DNA from: a virus
Lineage: Duplodnaviria > Heunggongvirae > Uroviricota > Caudoviricetes
IMG/VR virus record: IMGVR_UViG_3300044951_001136
Direction: 5' to 3' (one strand)
DNA length: 64,000 nucleotides
This document shows positions 2,563-60,725 of this stretch, piece by piece (positions within the stretch are counted from its first letter, which is position 1; every line of letters begins with the position of its first letter). A program made the position numbers and the translations under genes. Below the pieces are notes generated by a model that did no database searches, was not told where the DNA came from, and worked only from the letters and a program-made list of their open reading frames with translations.

Positions 2563-4065
2563 ATGCCAACAAATACCGAATCATTAAACCGCGAACTGTT
2601 TAGATTACTTTCTAAATACAAACCAAAACCATTAGATGCTGAAGGCAAAGCTACTCCTATCCCCGATGAAGCAGATATTTTCAAGTTTGAATTCACTAAA
2701 GACGGGAAAGATTACGGAACTGTTTATGCCACATTAGATGAAGATAGAGTATTAACTGTATATTTTGGCGATGATGTAACCGATAGTCCTGATGGTAAAA
2801 CACCCGGACTAGATTACGATGACACCTGGAGTGGACTACTACATCAATTAAGTGCTTGGAGAATGACCAAAGGACTTAAAGGATTTAATACACAAAACAA
2901 AGACCGTGTTGGAGATGACATGGCCAGAAGGAACCATATGAAGAACAAAGATAAACTAGCAGAAGGTTACTACGCCACAGGTAAGAAGTCAAGTTATAGT
3001 GATGCTGTGCCCACCGTAAAGATTGTAATTGAACATAGCCGTGTTATTGAAGAAGGTGAACAACGCTATCGTAACATCAACCGAATTTTTCTAGAAAATC
3101 AATTAGGTGAACGCTATTTACTTGATACCAAGAAGCCAGGTATTGCCCGTGTCTATGCCAGACATATCGCTGAGGGTGGCAAGGTCAATGATGATCGTTG
3201 GAGTCACATTGGTAGTCTTTGTGAAGAATATACCAAGATGGCTGGGTTTGTTCGTGCCACACGCAATGGTCAATTCAATGAATCAGCACAATCATTGGTG
3301 AACGAAGGTATTGCACATTATCAAAGTTTGCGTGAATCATTAAGCCGTATGACTGGCAAGCGCGGATACAATGTTTATTTTGAAAGTTGGACCCCTGCAT
3401 TAATGGAAGATGGAACTGAAGAAAATACCCTAAATGAATTATTTGTACAAGAGACATTAGATCCGCGTATTGAAAGTGTAATGCCAATATTGAATAGAAT
3501 ACATAAGAAGGTTTCTGAATCCGTAGTTGACATAGAGATGAGCAAGTTAGCAGAGTGGGCTGATGGGTTGACAGAAGCCGAAGGGGAAAGTTTAACAAGT
3601 AACAATTCAATTGGTATTCCTGAAGAAGGTGTGGCGGAAGGCTCACTAAACGAATCTGATAAATTTACAAGTTGGTATGATTGGAAAGATCAGGCTAAGA
3701 GTAGTGGGTATACTATTACGAAAAAAGATAATAAAATAGTAGCATTGAACAAACAAGACCAAGTAGTGGGTCATTGGTCTGATGTTGGCAAGTTCCTAAG
3801 TGGTAAGGCACCTCGTCCAAATTTCAAACGACCAGACGAGCAAGGTGTGGCGGAAGATTTAGATGCTGATCAAAAGCGGGTAGGTCAATTAGGCCCAACA
3901 GGTGGACCTGCTAAACCGGGTGACTTAGTTGGCGCCACTGAAAACTTCATCAATACGGTTGACCAAGCTGTTGTATCTGAAGAAGATGAAATGACTGAAG
4001 GTATTGTGAAAGAAGGGCAAGATGACTTAGACCGTATCTTACAGATTATGAAACACAGAAGATAA
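2563..4065 (+). CDS. putative head/internal virion protein with acidic modular C-terminus
   Basis: 500 aa; late promoter; repeated EGVAE motifs; acidic tail ending in amphipathic helix DDLDRILQIMKHRR. Confidence 0.6.
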   Translation: MPTNTESLNRELFRLLSKYKPKPLDAEGKATPIPDEADIFKFEFTKDGKDYGTVYATLDEDRVLTVYFGDDVTDSPDGKTPGLDYDDTWSGLLHQLSAWRMTKGLKGFNTQNKDRVGDDMARRNHMKNKDKLAEGYYATGKKSSYSDAVPTVKIVIEHSRVIEEGEQRYRNINRIFLENQLGERYLLDTKKPGIARVYARHIAEGGKVNDDRWSHIGSLCEEYTKMAGFVRATRNGQFNESAQSLVNEGIAHYQSLRESLSRMTGKRGYNVYFESWTPALMEDGTEENTLNELFVQETLDPRIESVMPILNRIHKKVSESVVDIEMSKLAEWADGLTEAEGESLTSNNSIGIPEEGVAEGSLNESDKFTSWYDWKDQAKSSGYTITKKDNKIVALNKQDQVVGHWSDVGKFLSGKAPRPNFKRPDEQGVAEDLDADQKRVGQLGPTGGPAKPGDLVGATENFINTVDQAVVSEEDEMTEGIVKEGQDDLDRILQIMKHRR

Positions 4066-8471: not shown

Positions 8472-8690
8472 ATGGCTTACAAAGTTGTCGCAGACAAGCA
8501 TCAAATGGATGAAATGCGTACTAAGTACGGTCCGCGTAAGGGTCTGGAAGGCCCCTTCAACTTCACCGGTCGAGTGTTGTATTATGACAACATAGAGGGT
8601 CAGTACTATGATCCTAAATCGGATTTTTATGTTGAGCAGTCTGAAATGGACCTGATCCATCAGCGAATCGTGAACATACTGAAGGCTTGA
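8472..8690 (+). CDS. early hypothetical protein (72 aa)
   Basis: AGGAG RBS before ATG 8472; the track start at 8334 runs through the promoter and is unlikely. Confidence 0.8.
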   Translation: MAYKVVADKHQMDEMRTKYGPRKGLEGPFNFTGRVLYYDNIEGQYYDPKSDFYVEQSEMDLIHQRIVNILKA

Positions 8691-18365: not shown

Positions 18366-18673
18366 AAGCATATATTGTAAAGTATACATTTGAAACAGAA
18401 AAAGAATATAGTGACTTTCGTAAACTCGGAGATGATTTTAAGTTAATCTCTTGGTTGGTTGACAAGGAAATATCTCCTATTTCAATTGAAGATTGTGACG
18501 ATAACGGTAAAGATAGTGCAGAGTTTAGTTTTAAATTAAAAAAAGATGCAAAAAGATTTGCAAATGCATTTAGATTAACTGTAGAAGGACCGTATGATTG
18601 TGACTTTAGCAATCCATGGTTACCTCCTGATTGGAACGGTGACTGGGATGATTTACCTGGTTTCAGAGGATGA
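18362..18673 (+). CDS. hypothetical protein (LRW-like core)
   Basis: ISWLVDKE...FSFKLKKDAKRFANAF; ATGA overlaps at both ends. Confidence 0.65.
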   Translation: MKAYIVKYTFETEKEYSDFRKLGDDFKLISWLVDKEISPISIEDCDDNGKDSAEFSFKLKKDAKRFANAFRLTVEGPYDCDFSNPWLPPDWNGDWDDLPGFRG

Positions 18674-19245
18674 GAATAGATAGTGACATTGACATTGACT
18701 TTGGTTCAAGAAATAAATTGCTTGAACTGATTAAGCATACAAGCGCGGCAATGCGTAATGTTAATCCAATTCGCAAACATGCAACTGGTGTATATGTTAC
18801 CCCTATTCCCTATGACCCTATCAATGACATAGCTAGTATTGATTATACAGTAGCAGAAAAGCGCGGATACTTTAAACTAGACTTATTGAATGTTCATGTC
18901 TATGAGAATGTCAAAGATGAACAACATCTCAATGAATTAATGGTTGACCCCGATTGGAGTAAACTTAAGGATAAATCTTTTGTTGAGAAACTAATTCACT
19001 TGAATAATCAGTATTACAACTTAGTGAAGATGCCAGAACCCATAGACAGTATCCCAAGATTAGCAATGTTTCTAGCAGTTATTCGTCCTGGCAAAAAGCA
19101 TTTAATCGGGAAAACTTGGAGTGAGATTAGTAAAACAGTGTGGGATAAGGGTACAGATGGGTATGTGTTCAAAAAAAGTCATAGCCTAGCTTACAGTCAA
19201 CTGGTTGTGGTACATATAAACCTCTTAGGACAGTCGCTTAACTAG
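18670..19245 (+). CDS. minimal DNA polymerase III alpha (family C) catalytic core
   Basis: SDIDIDF, KHATGVYV, GYFKLDLL, FLAVIRPG and FKKSHSLAY, in the same order as the DnaE motifs. Confidence 0.8.
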   Translation: MRIDSDIDIDFGSRNKLLELIKHTSAAMRNVNPIRKHATGVYVTPIPYDPINDIASIDYTVAEKRGYFKLDLLNVHVYENVKDEQHLNELMVDPDWSKLKDKSFVEKLIHLNNQYYNLVKMPEPIDSIPRLAMFLAVIRPGKKHLIGKTWSEISKTVWDKGTDGYVFKKSHSLAYSQLVVVHINLLGQSLN

Positions 19246-24752: not shown

Positions 24753-25463
24753 ATGAAACTAACCGAACTAAACAACAATCGCCGTGCGTACTCTACTAGA
24801 GTATTAACAGAACAATATGAAATGCCTTTCAATGTAGATAGCATGTCAATGTCATCTACACGAACCATGCTTGCAAAAGTTCGCGGATTGATGAATGAAT
24901 CAAAACAAACTCCTGACTATCACAATATCCAATCATCAAGTTCATATATGAAACTGGTATTCATGGAGCAAGCACTTGCAGATCATTATACTGAATTACG
25001 CTCACAACCGCGAGCAAGAATCATGGTTGAGAACGAAGAAGTTGAAAAGTCACAAGTTGTACTCGCAGCACAAGACATGGTAGACCAAATACAAAAAATG
25101 CTTGAAGATGTTGGGCAAATGCAAGTTAAAGAATTGCCTGCATTAGTATCCAGTATTGAAAGCGAAATTGGCGTAAACGAAAGTCAAGCATATAATGATG
25201 CAGTTTCAGCACAATTAGATTCACTGTCTGCCTCATTAAAAGAATCTTCAAGTGCATTGAAGAATGCATTGAATAGTCTAACTGGTCAAACCGTAGATGC
25301 AGCGTTTGATGCCGGTGCTGATTTAGGGGCAGATGCTGGTATGGACGCAGGATTAGATGCTGGTATGGACGCAGATATGGGTGATGAAGCATCTGCGATT
25401 CCTCCCCCAACTGAAGAACCAGAAATGCCTCCATCGGGTGGGGTAGGTAGAGCAAAGAGATAA
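24753..25463 (+). CDS. acidic helical late protein (possible prohead core/scaffold-type)
   Basis: Late box 24718-24725; E-rich; 24-bp tandem repeat agatgctggtatggacgcag at 25331 and 25355 (DAGMDA). Confidence 0.55.
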   Translation: MKLTELNNNRRAYSTRVLTEQYEMPFNVDSMSMSSTRTMLAKVRGLMNESKQTPDYHNIQSSSSYMKLVFMEQALADHYTELRSQPRARIMVENEEVEKSQVVLAAQDMVDQIQKMLEDVGQMQVKELPALVSSIESEIGVNESQAYNDAVSAQLDSLSASLKESSSALKNALNSLTGQTVDAAFDAGADLGADAGMDAGLDAGMDADMGDEASAIPPPTEEPEMPPSGGVGRAKR

Positions 25464-26856: not shown

Positions 26857-26926
26857 TTTTGATAAATAAGTGTGAGTCGCGGGACTGCAATCCCCACTCA
26901 CTCTAATGCTACAAGGAGCAATCAGC

Positions 26927-27607
26927 ATGAATATTTATTCAAAACTCTATCCGCCTTGCGGATTCTATGTTTACGCATATATCCGTAAGTATGGCAATAC
27001 TCCTTATTACATAGGAAAGGGTAAATTAGGTAGAGCGTGGACCCCTCACAAAAATATCGCTGTGCCTAAGGATCCTGAAAAAATAATAATATTAGAGAGT
27101 AATCTCACTGAGATAGGTGCATTCGCAATTGAACGACGAATGATAGCTTGGTATGGGAGAAAAGATTTAGGAACAGGCATACTCCGTAATCTAACAGACG
27201 GTGGCGAGGGAACGTCTGGTGCAGTATACGGACCGTATTCTGACGAAAGAAAACAAAGCATGTCTCAAGCAAGAATAAAAGGTATCAATGAGGGGAAAAT
27301 TGTAGCATGGAACAAAGGTTTAACTGGGTTACAAGAGGCATGGAATAAGGGCAAAACATTAACACCTGAACAAAAAATAAATATGGGCCCGCCTAAGGGC
27401 AGAATTCCCTGGAATAAAGGTAAAACAGGAGTCCAAGAAGGATGGAACAAAGGAAAAAAATTAGGTCCTTCTCATAATAAAGGTATACCTTCAGGCAAAA
27501 AGGGAATGACATATGAAGAAATCTACGGTCCTGAAAAAGCAGCAGAATTAAAAGAATTACGCCGAAATAAAAAACGAGATTACTGGTCTTCTAAAACAAC
27601 CAAGTAG
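26927..27607 (+). CDS. GIY-YIG homing endonuclease with NUMOD3-like WNKG repeats
   Basis: FYVYAY...YYIGKG...R, E..MIA.YGR, NLTDGGEG, and 4-5 [AP]WNKG repeats; AGGAG RBS before ATG 26927. Confidence 0.9.
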   Translation: MNIYSKLYPPCGFYVYAYIRKYGNTPYYIGKGKLGRAWTPHKNIAVPKDPEKIIILESNLTEIGAFAIERRMIAWYGRKDLGTGILRNLTDGGEGTSGAVYGPYSDERKQSMSQARIKGINEGKIVAWNKGLTGLQEAWNKGKTLTPEQKINMGPPKGRIPWNKGKTGVQEGWNKGKKLGPSHNKGIPSGKKGMTYEEIYGPEKAAELKELRRNKKRDYWSSKTTK

Positions 27608-43263: not shown

Positions 43264-43926
43264 ATGATTATTTTGGGGATCACCGGATTGATAGGATCTG
43301 GCAAAGACACCATTGCAGATTATCTCACCACACAGCATGGTTTCAAACGAGTCAGCTTTGCTGCTAGTCTTAAAGATGCAGTAGCAGCAGTTTTTGGATG
43401 GAATCGTGAGTATCTAGAAGGCACAACAAAAGCCAGCAGAGCATGGAGGGAGAAAAAAGATGAATGGTGGAGTAATCGTCTAGGTATGAACATTACTCCA
43501 AGATGGATTCTACAGTATTGGGGAACAGATGTATGTCGTAACCATTTTCATAATGCCATCTGGGTAGCAAGTGTAGAACACAAACTCTTAAACTCTAAAG
43601 AAGATGTTGTAATCACAGACTGTAGGTTTGACAATGAAGTTGCTGCTATTAAAAATGCAGGTGGAATAGCTATTAGAGTACAGCGTGGACCAAATCCTGA
43701 ATGGTATGATGCTGCAATTGCATATAATAGAGGACCAGATGGTAATTCATATTGGGCACTAAGTAAAATGAAGTTAGACAAACTAAAAATTCATGCTAGT
43801 GAGTACAGCAGCATAGGATTAAAATATGATTATGTTGTTGAAAATAATGGAACAATTGATGAGTTACATACCAAGATTCATACTATTATCAATAGTCAAT
43901 CTCAAGGTCTCCCCGTCTCCAAGTAA
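43264..43926 (+). CDS. deoxynucleoside monophosphate kinase (T4 gp1-like)
   Basis: GITGLIGSGKDT, SFAASLKD, PRWILQYWGTD, ITDCRFDNE. Confidence 0.9.
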   Translation: MIILGITGLIGSGKDTIADYLTTQHGFKRVSFAASLKDAVAAVFGWNREYLEGTTKASRAWREKKDEWWSNRLGMNITPRWILQYWGTDVCRNHFHNAIWVASVEHKLLNSKEDVVITDCRFDNEVAAIKNAGGIAIRVQRGPNPEWYDAAIAYNRGPDGNSYWALSKMKLDKLKIHASEYSSIGLKYDYVVENNGTIDELHTKIHTIINSQSQGLPVSK

Positions 43927-44833
43927 TCTCTTTCTTTTTCACAACTTCTATGCAGTTTAAGCAAATGCTGCGTAGATTAGTTTGTTCATTGTGATCCAAG
44001 TGCCCATCAACATGAAATACTGTTATTTGTGTAACGAATAAACTCTTAAAGCCACATAAATCACATGTGGCTTTTTTCTTATAACCACTCTTAGTCCAAT
44101 TGGCTTTTTGTGGTTTTTGCTTCTGCTTCTTCCTACTACATTCATCACATATGCTTCTGTAATGTGTAACACCGGCACGTTTATAGTTCACTGCTGCGTG
44201 ATTCTTGTTACATTTATTGCAGAATGGCCGATTATTGTAATTGGGTTTTGAACCGTATGTGCCGTTGTCTATTGCTTTTTGTTTTCTTCTATCACGCTCG
44301 CCGACCCGCCTTTTTATTTTTTCTTCATTTTCTAATTTTTTAATTTCTTTGACCTTATTTTTTTCTTCCAGTTGACGAATTTTGGATAGCCGGTTTAGTT
44401 CTCGTTGATGCAATCTTTCTTCTCTTTTTTTGTTTCTTTCAAGTCGTTTTGCTTCATTGAAAGGTGCAATTGACGCTTTTTGTTTTTGGATGGATTCTTT
44501 ACTTTTAGGTCTGCCTTTTGTCCAACCTGGTCCTCTATGTCCACCGGGAGCAATGTTCCATCCAGTTGCTTTTTTTGGTCTTAGTATTTCTTCCATTTCA
44601 TAGCAATAAGATTCTTCACCGCATAAGATAACATCTTTGATTAGATTGTCCCATCCATATTTCCTAACTGCATGTATTAGATGTGGATTTTTATGTTTCT
44701 TGTTATTAATGTCATTCAAATGTCCTTTTAACCTACGGGCATAATCTTTAGAGACTCCAACATATCCGTCGGTAGCTGCATTAGTGTGTTCCGGTAGATG
44801 TATCCAATAGATAACAGTACTTTTTATATTCAT
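43889..44833 (-). CDS. GIY-YIG endonuclease fused to C-terminal zinc-finger/HNH-like domain
   Basis: IYWI...GYVG...R..H, E..I...GWNIAPGG; C-terminal CxxC pairs and HVDGHLDHNEQTNLRSICLNC; TATAAATA at 44872-44865. Confidence 0.8.
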   Translation of the reverse strand: MNIKSTVIYWIHLPEHTNAATDGYVGVSKDYARRLKGHLNDINNKKHKNPHLIHAVRKYGWDNLIKDVILCGEESYCYEMEEILRPKKATGWNIAPGGHRGPGWTKGRPKSKESIQKQKASIAPFNEAKRLERNKKREERLHQRELNRLSKIRQLEEKNKVKEIKKLENEEKIKRRVGERDRRKQKAIDNGTYGSKPNYNNRPFCNKCNKNHAAVNYKRAGVTHYRSICDECSRKKQKQKPQKANWTKSGYKKKATCDLCGFKSLFVTQITVFHVDGHLDHNEQTNLRSICLNCIEVVKKKEITWRRGDLEIDY

Positions 44834-52499: not shown

Positions 52500-55448
52500 A
52501 TGGATTTCAGAGATATATTAAAATCGTTTGACAATTTATCAGAAGCCACAACTACTACTGATACAGGTGAAGTTCACACTGCTGACCCAGGTGGTTACGG
52601 TCGTAAAGACGATGAAGATGCTGACGGTAACCCAGTTAAGCAAGCACCTCCTGCCGTGAAGCGTGGCAAAGGTCGTCCTCCAAAAGCAGCCCCTGCAGGT
52701 AGCAAGCCTGATTGGTCAGCATTTGGTGTAACAGGTAAAGATGTTAAGTTGCCCAAGTGGGATAAAAGTAAAACTACTAAGCATAGTTTGAAAGAATACT
52801 TTGATCAATTAACCCAAGCATTGAATGAAGCTGATCAAATTGAAATCAAACCGGCTTCACAAATGCCTAAGCAGCCCGGACAAACACTACAGCCCGGACA
52901 ACAGCAACAAATGGCAGGTCAACCACAAAAGAACACACAAGTTATTGCACAAGGTGATAAGACACTAGGTACAGTTGACAACGCTCAATTAGCACAACAG
53001 ATTAAACAATCTATTGGTAAAGGTGAACTGACTTTAATGCCTGATCAACAAATGGCTGAAGATGGTGAAAATTGGATCAAGGGTGCTATTAAGCATCCGG
53101 GCGCCTTCACCACAAAAGCAAAATCTCACGGTATGACTCCTACTCAATTCAGAGCAAAAGTCTTAGCACACAAAGAAGATTATCCTGCTAAGACAGAAAA
53201 GCAAGCACAACTTGCTACGACATTAAGCAAGATGCATGAGGCTGAAGCTCCACAGTACTTTGCACAATCAAGTCCACTAAGCACTGCTAATCGCGGTGTA
53301 TTAGAAGGCAAGAAAGGTGTAAATCCTTTTGTCAAGAAAGATGACAAGGCTGAAAAGATTGGAAAAAAAGTTACCAAAGATATAGAAAAGGATGAGAAGA
53401 AAGGGAACGCACCTAAGAAAGGTGTTAATCCTTTTGCTAAGAAATCTGCCAAACCAGACTTTCTAGATATAGATAAAGACGGTAATAAGAAAGAGCCAAT
53501 GAAGAAAGCTGTCAAAGATAAAAAGAAAGTTAAAGAAGGCATGGAACATAATTTACAAGCTGCAAGACTTCAAGGTAAAAGCCATGCACTAAGAAAAATG
53601 CCATACAATTGCACAAACGATGATATGGAAGAAGCAAGACACTATCACGACGGGTTCAAAGAAGGCTTAGATGAGTGCTATGGTCAAATGCCAATACTAG
53701 GTCTCACTGCAATTGGTGAAATGGGTCAAGGACCTGAAGTTGGCACAATGGCTAGTTATGGCGCACATGATGTAATGGATGAAGGCATGGGTAAAGGTGA
53801 TATAGATATGTTTGGTGAAGATGATTATATGGATATTATCCAAGACATGATTGATAATAATCGCCGCTATATGAGTCCAAGTAGAAAACCAAGAGTAATG
53901 GCCGCAGTTAAAAAATATGTAGAATCAAACGGTGGAGTATTTGATCCTATGTTGTTTGAAGAAATGTATGATCGGATAGTATCATTCGCCCGAGATATAT
54001 TTAACGAGCAAGGCATGGGTGAAGTAGATGAGATGGATAAGACTTCTTACATGAAGCAACAAGCAATTACAACGCCCGGTAACACTTTCAAAGCATTTGG
54101 ACAAACAATGCGTGATAACAATGTTTTAGATGAATTTGCTTTTGAATCATTAGATAAGCAATTAAATTCTTTACTTGAAAATGTTAATGAAGGTAGAATG
54201 AATGAACTATCATTGGATTTTAAAGAGTTAACTGACGCAGAATTCAAAAAGAAATACGGTAAAACTAAGGCTGAATTCAAAGCCAATGTGAAAAGTGAAG
54301 AAAATGTATCTGAAGGAATGACAGTTTCAATCAGTAAAGGTCAACAAGGATCACCTGATTCAGTGTCAGTATCAGCACAAGATGGTGAAGCTGACCAATT
54401 GTTATCTATAATTAAATCAGCAGGTTTAGGCTTATTTGGAGGTGAAGAACAAGGTTTCAATGCACCACAAGGCTCAGCAGGTGCTCACGGTGGTATCAGC
54501 GTAGTTGATGACCATGACGGTATGATGTCATTGATGAAGAAATTGTCAGGCACTGGCGGCGGAGAAATGACAGATGACGGTGACTATGAAGATGAAGAAG
54601 GTTCCAGTGAAGAAGATCATGGGCATGAGGCAGAAACATGCGAGTCATGTGGCGACATGATGGAAGAGAATCATCAATGTGAATCCGATGAACAACCAGT
54701 TATGGGCGAAGATGAATCAGAAGATCAAATGACTGATGATGTATCTGAAGCAAATGCCCCAGATTCCGGTGCTGATAATACCAATGCTGATGTTGCAGGG
54801 AATGCAGCAGCTAATAGTGCATTGGCAACGGCAGATGCAGGTGCAGACGAAGAAGAAGGTGAAGTATATTCAAGCCCAACTAACGAAGCTGAAGATGAAA
54901 CAGGTGAAGAAGCCGGCACAGACGCATTAGATGAAGATAACAATTGCAAAAAATGTGATTGCAATCCTTGCAAATGCGAAACAATGTCAGAATCAAGTTT
55001 CACTAATCTTTTCAGAAAAATAGCAATGCTTTCAGAAGAATCAACTAAAGTAGAAGAATCAGAAGAAAGACCTTTTATTTGTGTACATGCTAAAAAAGGT
55101 AAGTGCGAAGTTAAAGCAAGTAGTAGTTATCAAGCAGCACAAAAAGCTGCTCAGAAATGGGGACTTAAAAGTACAGCTGGCATTGATGCCCACTTGTCTG
55201 ATGTAAAAAAGGATACTAGTTCAATAGAAGAATCATACGCTAACAGTGCAGATGATACATTTGAAGCTGACATTGGATTTATGATGAATGTTATAAGTGG
55301 TGGATTGAATAAACAAAAATCTACCGGTCAAACAACTATCCCAGTAATCTCAGGGCAAAAGAATCGCATGGGTGCTGATGGCTTAGGTAATCCTATGAAA
55401 GAATCCACTGAGTTGTTAAAAGACTACATGAAATTAAGCGGTCTATAA
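52500..55448 (+). CDS. large acidic modular protein (putative internal-head polyprotein)
   Basis: 982 aa, D/E-rich; many [VLM]xE sites; in-frame cassettes bounded by direct repeats; ends LLKDYMKLSGL. Confidence 0.6.
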   Translation: MDFRDILKSFDNLSEATTTTDTGEVHTADPGGYGRKDDEDADGNPVKQAPPAVKRGKGRPPKAAPAGSKPDWSAFGVTGKDVKLPKWDKSKTTKHSLKEYFDQLTQALNEADQIEIKPASQMPKQPGQTLQPGQQQQMAGQPQKNTQVIAQGDKTLGTVDNAQLAQQIKQSIGKGELTLMPDQQMAEDGENWIKGAIKHPGAFTTKAKSHGMTPTQFRAKVLAHKEDYPAKTEKQAQLATTLSKMHEAEAPQYFAQSSPLSTANRGVLEGKKGVNPFVKKDDKAEKIGKKVTKDIEKDEKKGNAPKKGVNPFAKKSAKPDFLDIDKDGNKKEPMKKAVKDKKKVKEGMEHNLQAARLQGKSHALRKMPYNCTNDDMEEARHYHDGFKEGLDECYGQMPILGLTAIGEMGQGPEVGTMASYGAHDVMDEGMGKGDIDMFGEDDYMDIIQDMIDNNRRYMSPSRKPRVMAAVKKYVESNGGVFDPMLFEEMYDRIVSFARDIFNEQGMGEVDEMDKTSYMKQQAITTPGNTFKAFGQTMRDNNVLDEFAFESLDKQLNSLLENVNEGRMNELSLDFKELTDAEFKKKYGKTKAEFKANVKSEENVSEGMTVSISKGQQGSPDSVSVSAQDGEADQLLSIIKSAGLGLFGGEEQGFNAPQGSAGAHGGISVVDDHDGMMSLMKKLSGTGGGEMTDDGDYEDEEGSSEEDHGHEAETCESCGDMMEENHQCESDEQPVMGEDESEDQMTDDVSEANAPDSGADNTNADVAGNAAANSALATADAGADEEEGEVYSSPTNEAEDETGEEAGTDALDEDNNCKKCDCNPCKCETMSESSFTNLFRKIAMLSEESTKVEESEERPFICVHAKKGKCEVKASSSYQAAQKAAQKWGLKSTAGIDAHLSDVKKDTSSIEESYANSADDTFEADIGFMMNVISGGLNKQKSTGQTTIPVISGQKNRMGADGLGNPMKESTELLKDYMKLSGL

Positions 55449-55462
55449 AAGAATCGTAACTT

Positions 55463-55494
55463 AAAATACTCGGCTTTATGTCGGGTATTTTTTT
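55463..55494 (+). terminator. intrinsic terminator
   Basis: AATACTCGGC/GTCGGGTATT stem plus T-run. Confidence 0.8.

Positions 55495-55532: not shown

Positions 55533-60725
<5,193 letters not shown>

Follow-up and report, generated by a model that had tools for sequence, protein, structure and literature searches.

One gene in a 64,000-nucleotide stretch of DNA from a virus of the Caudoviricetes (IMG/VR record IMGVR_UViG_3300044951_001136; below, the window) raises the question of whether a phage head protein can serve as a carrier for small, exchangeable protein domains. A preliminary description had noted three in-frame modules in this gene, each flanked by exact short DNA repeats at hydrophobic-x-Glu sites, and had read the product as a capsid-targeted polyprotein that releases its modules on maturation. 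We mapped the parts of the gene (Table 1) and compared it with its relatives. From a reading of the sequence, the gene lies in a T4-like structural region with tail sheath and tail tube genes upstream, and terminase, gp32, and UvsX/UvsY/UvsW are encoded elsewhere in the window. The carrier ORF contains 29 [VLMI]xE motifs, against 15.2 expected. Residues L13 and E15 of its short leader are nearly invariant among orthologues, and by comparison with the capsid-targeting sequences of T4 (PMC9026906) the leader is a candidate capsid-targeting propeptide. The AT-hook-like motif that follows may bind DNA. The Atlas model of the whole chain had low confidence. Pfam searches, run with the carrier and its modules as well as with 53 family members and 36 variable regions from the second carrier, gave nothing above the curated thresholds that would assign a function, and no carrier module matched any family or fold of known function. 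Positions 53307 to 53537 encode a basic stretch in which a KKGVNPF unit is duplicated and a DxDxDG motif resembles a calcium loop; these short units differ in copy number between orthologues.

Table 1. Features of the carrier gene and of the second carrier (window coordinates)
Feature	Position	Strand	Description
Second carrier of the same system	2563..4065	+	500 aa, after terminase; matches phrog_13484 (virion structural protein)
72-codon module of second carrier	3626..3856	+	exact 15-nt repeat at 3626-3640 and 3842-3856
Carrier ORF	52500..55448	+	982 aa, acidic, mostly low-complexity
N-terminal leader, 15 aa	52500..52544	+	ends in L-x-E, then A/G/S; candidate capsid-targeting propeptide
AT-hook-like basic motif, aa 54-62	52659..52685	+	conserved; K54, G58, and R59 nearly invariant
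8-nt repeat, left of W	53054..53061	+	chance level; missing in other W-bearing orthologues
W module, aa 188-247	53061..53240	+	basic, four helices; slot A
8-nt repeat, right of W	53240..53247	+	exchange breakpoint at codon 247; identity to L001 resumes at 53238
11-nt repeat, left of G	53782..53792	+	encodes E-G-M-G
G module, aa 429 to 508-511	53784..54032	+	acidic/aromatic; slot B
11-nt repeat, right of G	54010..54024	+	in a degenerate QGVAE-type linker (QGMGE)
K module, aa 561-598	54180..54293	+	fourth cassette, overlooked in the preliminary description; no exact flanking repeat
Scaffold core, about aa 606-690	54315..54570	+	conserved; anchor of the orthologue search
11-nt repeat, left of P	55051..55061	+	V-E-E-S; left edge of transferred cassette
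P module, aa 854-911	55059..55232	+	beta-beta-alpha-beta mini-domain; mobile between genes
11-nt repeat, right of P	55225..55235	+	I-E-E-S; right edge of transferred cassette
Terminator-like hairpin 3' of carrier gene	55463..55491	+	consensus match only

Using the conserved core (aa 600 to 700) as the query, we retrieved 80 orthologous loci. The same gene lay upstream in 80/80, and the loci yielded 57 distinct complete proteins of about 660 to 1240 aa. The cassette system in the carrier gene is real: as had been proposed, the modules are present in some of these 57 proteins and missing from others. W (62 aa) occurred in 21/57, P (58 aa) and K only in the studied copy and its near-identical relative L001, and G (76 aa) in the studied copy alone (1/57). 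The DNA of L001 is 96 to 98% identical in blocks, yet it lacks W and G, and its identity to the studied copy resumes precisely at the Glu codon that closes W. Dozens of further private inserts were found in other orthologues. Among 37 clean indels, 10 had an in-register [VLMI]xE motif within three residues of both ends (0.22 expected), a coincidence reached in none of 100,000 simulations. All 10 belonged to the 25 inserts of at least 38 aa; shorter indels were changes in repeat units. Another orthologue (L078:1370-4912) carries a 348-aa insert past slot A, made up of a module of about 100 aa duplicated in tandem.

Slot A held exactly one basic module in each of the 57 orthologues and never two: W in 21, the unrelated H in 35, and a third type in 1. 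Mapped onto the scaffold tree, the slot has changed 11 to 12 times, with at least 5 to 6 of the changes forced by well-supported branches. W and H have net charges of +7 and +6, respectively. Slot B was vacant in most orthologues and elsewhere held at least four unrelated inserts. No allele missing exactly the 76 aa of G was seen among the 57 orthologues, and comparison of G with the empty alleles suggested an insert of about 82 to 83 aa. The modules are under purifying selection (W, pS 0.53 versus pN 0.12; closest P copies, pS 0.32-0.46 versus pN 0.04-0.05); the values for the scaffold core were pS 0.51 and pN 0.05.

The proposal that modules might also exist alone or in other hosts held for G, P, and W: P was found in other hosts, and G and W also as free genes. 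A pattern search of IMG/VR found no relatives of G, and a full HMMER search did. G occurred in five other proteins: two are strings joined by linkers, two are short and either free or fragmentary, and one is acidic. The gene of the acidic host lies two genes upstream of one that resembles gp21 (the gp67 position), and in this host G stands between INE and VME. A free gene of 96 aa that bears G has a short M-R-I-N-E leader, and G itself contains an internal LFE motif. One further HMMER candidate, P0010, was rejected as a false match to a repeat protein. W forms a free gene of 59 to 66 aa in Thermus phage P23-45 and in many uncultured phages. It is also homologous to aa 310 to 356 of crAss-like cr108_1 gp56 (E 4.9e-8 scaled to a million sequences), which carries the Pfam domain crAss_CARG1 (crAss cargo protein 1); in crAss001, cargo protein 1 sits inside the virion (PMC10172136). 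Neither the G nor the W profile matched PDB sequences, and the fold search with the W model (best Z 4.5) pointed to no known function.

P was found in 49 loci, and its host proteins form about 16 clusters, among them orthologues of ORFs 2563 and 24753 of the window. Within the carrier-gene orthologues its position shifts to between 101 and 468 instead of 856, and in other proteins it also stands at the N terminus behind leaders of 9 to 11 residues. In its hosts it nearly always lies between [VLMI]xE motifs. At the DNA level it is about 90% identical to P in L090/L092 of the ORF-2563 family, and because this identity begins and ends at the two repeat copies, the P repeat reflects genuine transfer from one gene to another. 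Most other hosts of P keep the motif on both sides and share only 3 to 9 nt of DNA. The search found neither P nor the scaffold in cultured phages. The P model had a pLDDT of 85, and its best fold matches were PaaB (Z 5.7), ribosomal eL20 (Z 5.3), and AcrIE2 (Z 4.8); we rejected all three as indications of function, as such Z scores are background level for a small beta-beta-alpha-beta unit. The window ORF at 24753 to 25463 encodes a 236-aa protein that matches phrog_14154 (virion structural protein), and P recurs in its distant relatives L123 and L135.

We then turned to the DNA repeats themselves. Those around G, P, and W are in frame, occur only twice each in the window, and are spaced by 228, 174, and 186 bp, respectively, as first described. 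A [VLMI]xE motif stands beside every joint (E187/E247 for W, E428/E508-511 for G, and E853/E911 for P). The claim that the repeats exceed chance was not borne out. The carrier gene holds 205 exact repeats of at least 8 nt, so the 8-mer at W is unremarkable; 25 of the 205 are in frame at 120 to 300 bp. In-frame repeats of at least 11 nt at this spacing numbered 3, whereas synonymous reshuffling with the protein fixed gave 1.69 +/- 1.07 (P of at least 2 = 0.54) and codon shuffling gave 0.40 +/- 0.67 (P = 0.07). The repeats differ in how precisely they bound the modules: at P both copies are the exact edges, at W the right copy falls on the exchange breakpoint and the left copy is missing from other W-bearing orthologues, and at G the copies lie close to the probable edges. 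The right G repeat matches the linker at 3836 to 3856 in 17/21 nt, a pattern picked after the data were seen, and both G-flanking copies carry one and the same variant. Across the 25 inserts of at least 38 aa, codons at matching joint residues were identical in 30/47 cases (27.8 expected); since this is no clear excess, target-site duplication is not the rule. Exact duplication that includes silent positions at both ends was seen only in individual cases (P and the ORF-2563 linker). The DNA repeats are thus mostly a by-product of coding for the [VLMI]xE motif, with no excess at silent sites, and the shuffles, the P hosts, and the joint codons do not support exact repeats as a general hallmark of the cassettes.

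What is kept at the joints is the protein motif. The Glu of [VLMI]xE was conserved at 0.82, compared with 0.55 for other Glu residues (p = 4e-5). V, L, and M were about twofold enriched two residues before Glu, with V and M as frequent as L at this hydrophobic position, and A, G, and S were about twofold enriched right after the motif Glu; L and M showed no such enrichment before Asp. Acidic proteins commonly contain so short a motif, and its enrichment is only about twofold. Glu conservation and the motif-bounded indels nevertheless uphold the earlier view of the joints as gp21-type sites and show them to be under selection. It is at these motif-coding joints that small, autonomously folding modules come, go, and are exchanged. 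T4 gp21 cuts after L/I-x-E (PMC9026906). Peptidase_S77 (PF03420, gp21) and Gp23 (PF07068) were present together in 4/5 long orthologue-bearing contigs; the gp21 gene was seen in relatives only, not within the window. In the complete 349-kb genome of one relative (G004), the most motif-enriched proteins included the scaffold at the gp22 position, the ORF-2563 orthologue, gp21, and the carrier orthologue, and gp23 has L-A-E at residue 43, ahead of its Pfam domain. From these patterns, a gp21-type protease probably cuts the carrier at [VLMI]xE during head maturation.

The second carrier, ORF 2563, has a conserved N-terminal half and a C-terminal half that is a highly variable string of modules. 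Between orthologues, N-terminal halves can be 95% identical while the module strings are entirely different. Its 15-nt repeat encodes G-V-A-E with codons that are rare in the family (GTG 5%, GCG 4%), and this linker is kept letter for letter twice in the gene and also in relatives. Some modules of the ORF-2563 family are common to the carrier-gene family, and the module pool is common to other head proteins and free-standing small genes. At 8472 to 8690 of the window, a free 72-aa gene (phrog_13298) stands among nonstructural genes, and its homologue also serves as a module inside the carriers of relatives (L102, L104, L125, and L159). The G004 genome also encodes, on the minus strand at 287939 to 290983 (L152:7939-10983), a 1014-aa string of modules with xxE sites between them; one module starts with an RRGFLG twin-arginine-like motif. 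Two modules of this string occur in phrog_727 proteins, which are found in over 300 cultured cyanomyovirus records and differ by module-sized indels (Syn9 gp114 and S-RIM50 gp140). In Syn9 gp114 and S-RIM50 gp140 the indels lie near xxE, but motif enrichment and a virion annotation in the records were both lacking, and we therefore do not take the cyanomyovirus proteins as proof of packaging.

Taken together, we consider it reasonably likely that the carrier is associated with the prohead core and that its modules, exchanged at xxE joints, are cut apart by a gp21-type protease, with accessory pieces retained in the head. The product of a T4-like phage of about 350 kb would be targeted to the prohead core by its 15-aa leader, as T4 biology suggests. 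Cutting of the conserved low-complexity scaffold at its [VLMI]-x-E punctuation would give pieces of 20 to 120 residues. Recombination at the joints would have only short homology in the motif-coding DNA to guide it, and selection would keep in-frame products with a cut site on each side. By analogy with T4, some pieces would stay in the head; their ejection and action on the host are speculative. The basic charge of the slot-A modules and the AT-hook-like motif suggest DNA-contacting core peptides, which is most likely the role of W, H, or the third type in this slot; the internal proteins of T4 touch packaged DNA through their lysines (PMC3012670). For the sporadic modules (G, K, P, and others), the likeliest role is that of accessory pieces that stay in the head and may be ejected, and they could act as accessory effectors resembling Ip1-3 (PMC12373910). 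As a counterpoint to the cargo view, W is a free gene in Thermus siphoviruses, which are not T4-like; given this and the free homologue of another module at 8472 to 8690, modules need not be capsid bound. Possible but doubtful is the broader idea of an in-frame cassette system that spans the genomes of large T4-like freshwater phages. In it, several head proteins would serve as carriers, mini-proteins from a common pool would be shuffled among them at protease sites, and maturation would free a cocktail, specific to the strain, whose injection disarms or reprograms the host.

The carrier could instead be filler resembling gp67, gp68, and gp22 that is cut in order to exit the prohead, with modules that act in assembly or in the cytoplasm, or merely ride along, rather than forming a payload. 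In T4, cleavage of the core proteins yields many fragments, most of which exit the head (PMC9026906); the predicted carrier fragments are mostly short or very acidic, and G lies within a protein at the gp67 position. However, the modules are compact, their protein sequences are conserved in unrelated hosts, and W is shared with a known family of ejected cargo. Disposal alone does not explain the spread of the modules, and we find this explanation unlikely.

It is quite improbable that the carrier works uncut, as a flexible multidomain hub in the virion or cytoplasm whose xxE sites are helix-end linkers that tolerate indels. The low-confidence model of the whole chain is consistent with such disorder, but Glu and the hydrophobic residue two positions before it are specifically conserved, with L and M not enriched before Asp; the same motif recurs at the end of the gp23 leader and in the scaffold of relatives, and modules exist free-standing. 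Very improbable is a dedicated mobile element, or a site-specific system, with duplication of its target and the DNA repeats as its footprint. The edges of the P cassette do fall on the repeat, the rare-codon linker is exact twice in ORF 2563 and in relatives, and the G-flanking copies share a variant. Against this, joint codons agree about as often as expected, P elsewhere is flanked by only 3 to 9 nt of shared DNA, K has no repeat, and repeat counts agree with those of synonymous shuffles, all of which disfavours such an element for the carrier gene.

A T4-type internal protein would be expected to have an N-terminal capsid-targeting propeptide of 10 to 19 residues and to inhibit a type IV restriction enzyme or another defence. 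In T4 and the T-even phages, IPI, IPII, IPIII, and Alt carry a capsid-targeting sequence and are processed by gp21 (PMC9026906, PMC3012670, and PMC12373910). The carrier resembles them in its short N-terminal leader ending in hydrophobic-x-Glu, in having small domains that vary from one related phage to another, and in the gp21/gp23-type head of its relatives; it had no sequence or fold match to any of them. Unlike the internal proteins, with one leader and one cargo per gene, it strings many modules inside a conserved scaffold (982 aa with at least four cassettes), and its modules move between unrelated genes. Because internal proteins are single-cargo genes, we view the carrier as working like a multiplexed version of that system and not as a member of it. 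Acidity, low complexity, and many L/I-x-E-like sites are shared with T4 gp22, gp67, and gp68 (PMC9026906). Unlike these, the carrier is not homologous (no Pfam or PHROG match), lies outside the gp20-gp23 operon, after the tail sheath and tube genes, and holds exchangeable folded modules; in G004, separate core genes stand beside gp21.

The use of short repeats as crossover points and the gain and loss of small ORFan cassettes recall PeSL shuffling in T4-type phages, in which intergenic promoter/stem-loop elements of about 100 bp move whole genes (PMC2839356). The carrier joints, unlike PeSLs, are in frame, span a few codons (8 to 15 nt), and are conserved mainly as protein, and promoter-like counts were near shuffle level. 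Crassvirus cargo protein 1 (gp45; PF25725; PMC10172136) is an internal virion protein, and some members hold a W homologue; unlike the carrier, it is a podovirus-like ejection protein with no xxE joints seen around W, and the W segment within it has been neither resolved nor characterised. Head proteins of the giant phages phiKZ and SPN3US (PMC5694885) undergo multiple Glu-specific cuts in one precursor, as predicted for the carrier, but there the cuts strip a long propeptide from one mature protein, and cassette exchange is not described. We found no description of cassette polyproteins of this kind in a literature search that covered few subscription papers.

If cut and packaged as predicted, the carrier would multiplex the T4 internal-protein trick, with one gene delivering many small proteins. 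On sequence alone, the [VLMI]xE joints would then delimit a large library of mini-proteins, conserved and self-folding, that could be expressed and screened singly for DNA binding or antidefence activity. The carrier would also illustrate a route for phage orphan genes to become virion cargo. Next to it, positions 55548 to 60725 encode a 1725-aa tail-fibre-like protein with a collagen-like GAT repeat; the GC content of 52 to 54%, versus about 38% in the rest of the window, suggests a recent acquisition. Two free-standing genes (26906 to 27607 and 43889 to 44833) resemble GIY-YIG homing endonucleases, judged by sequence reading only, and a 191-aa ORF at 18670 to 19245 resembles a truncated DnaE-type polymerase core.
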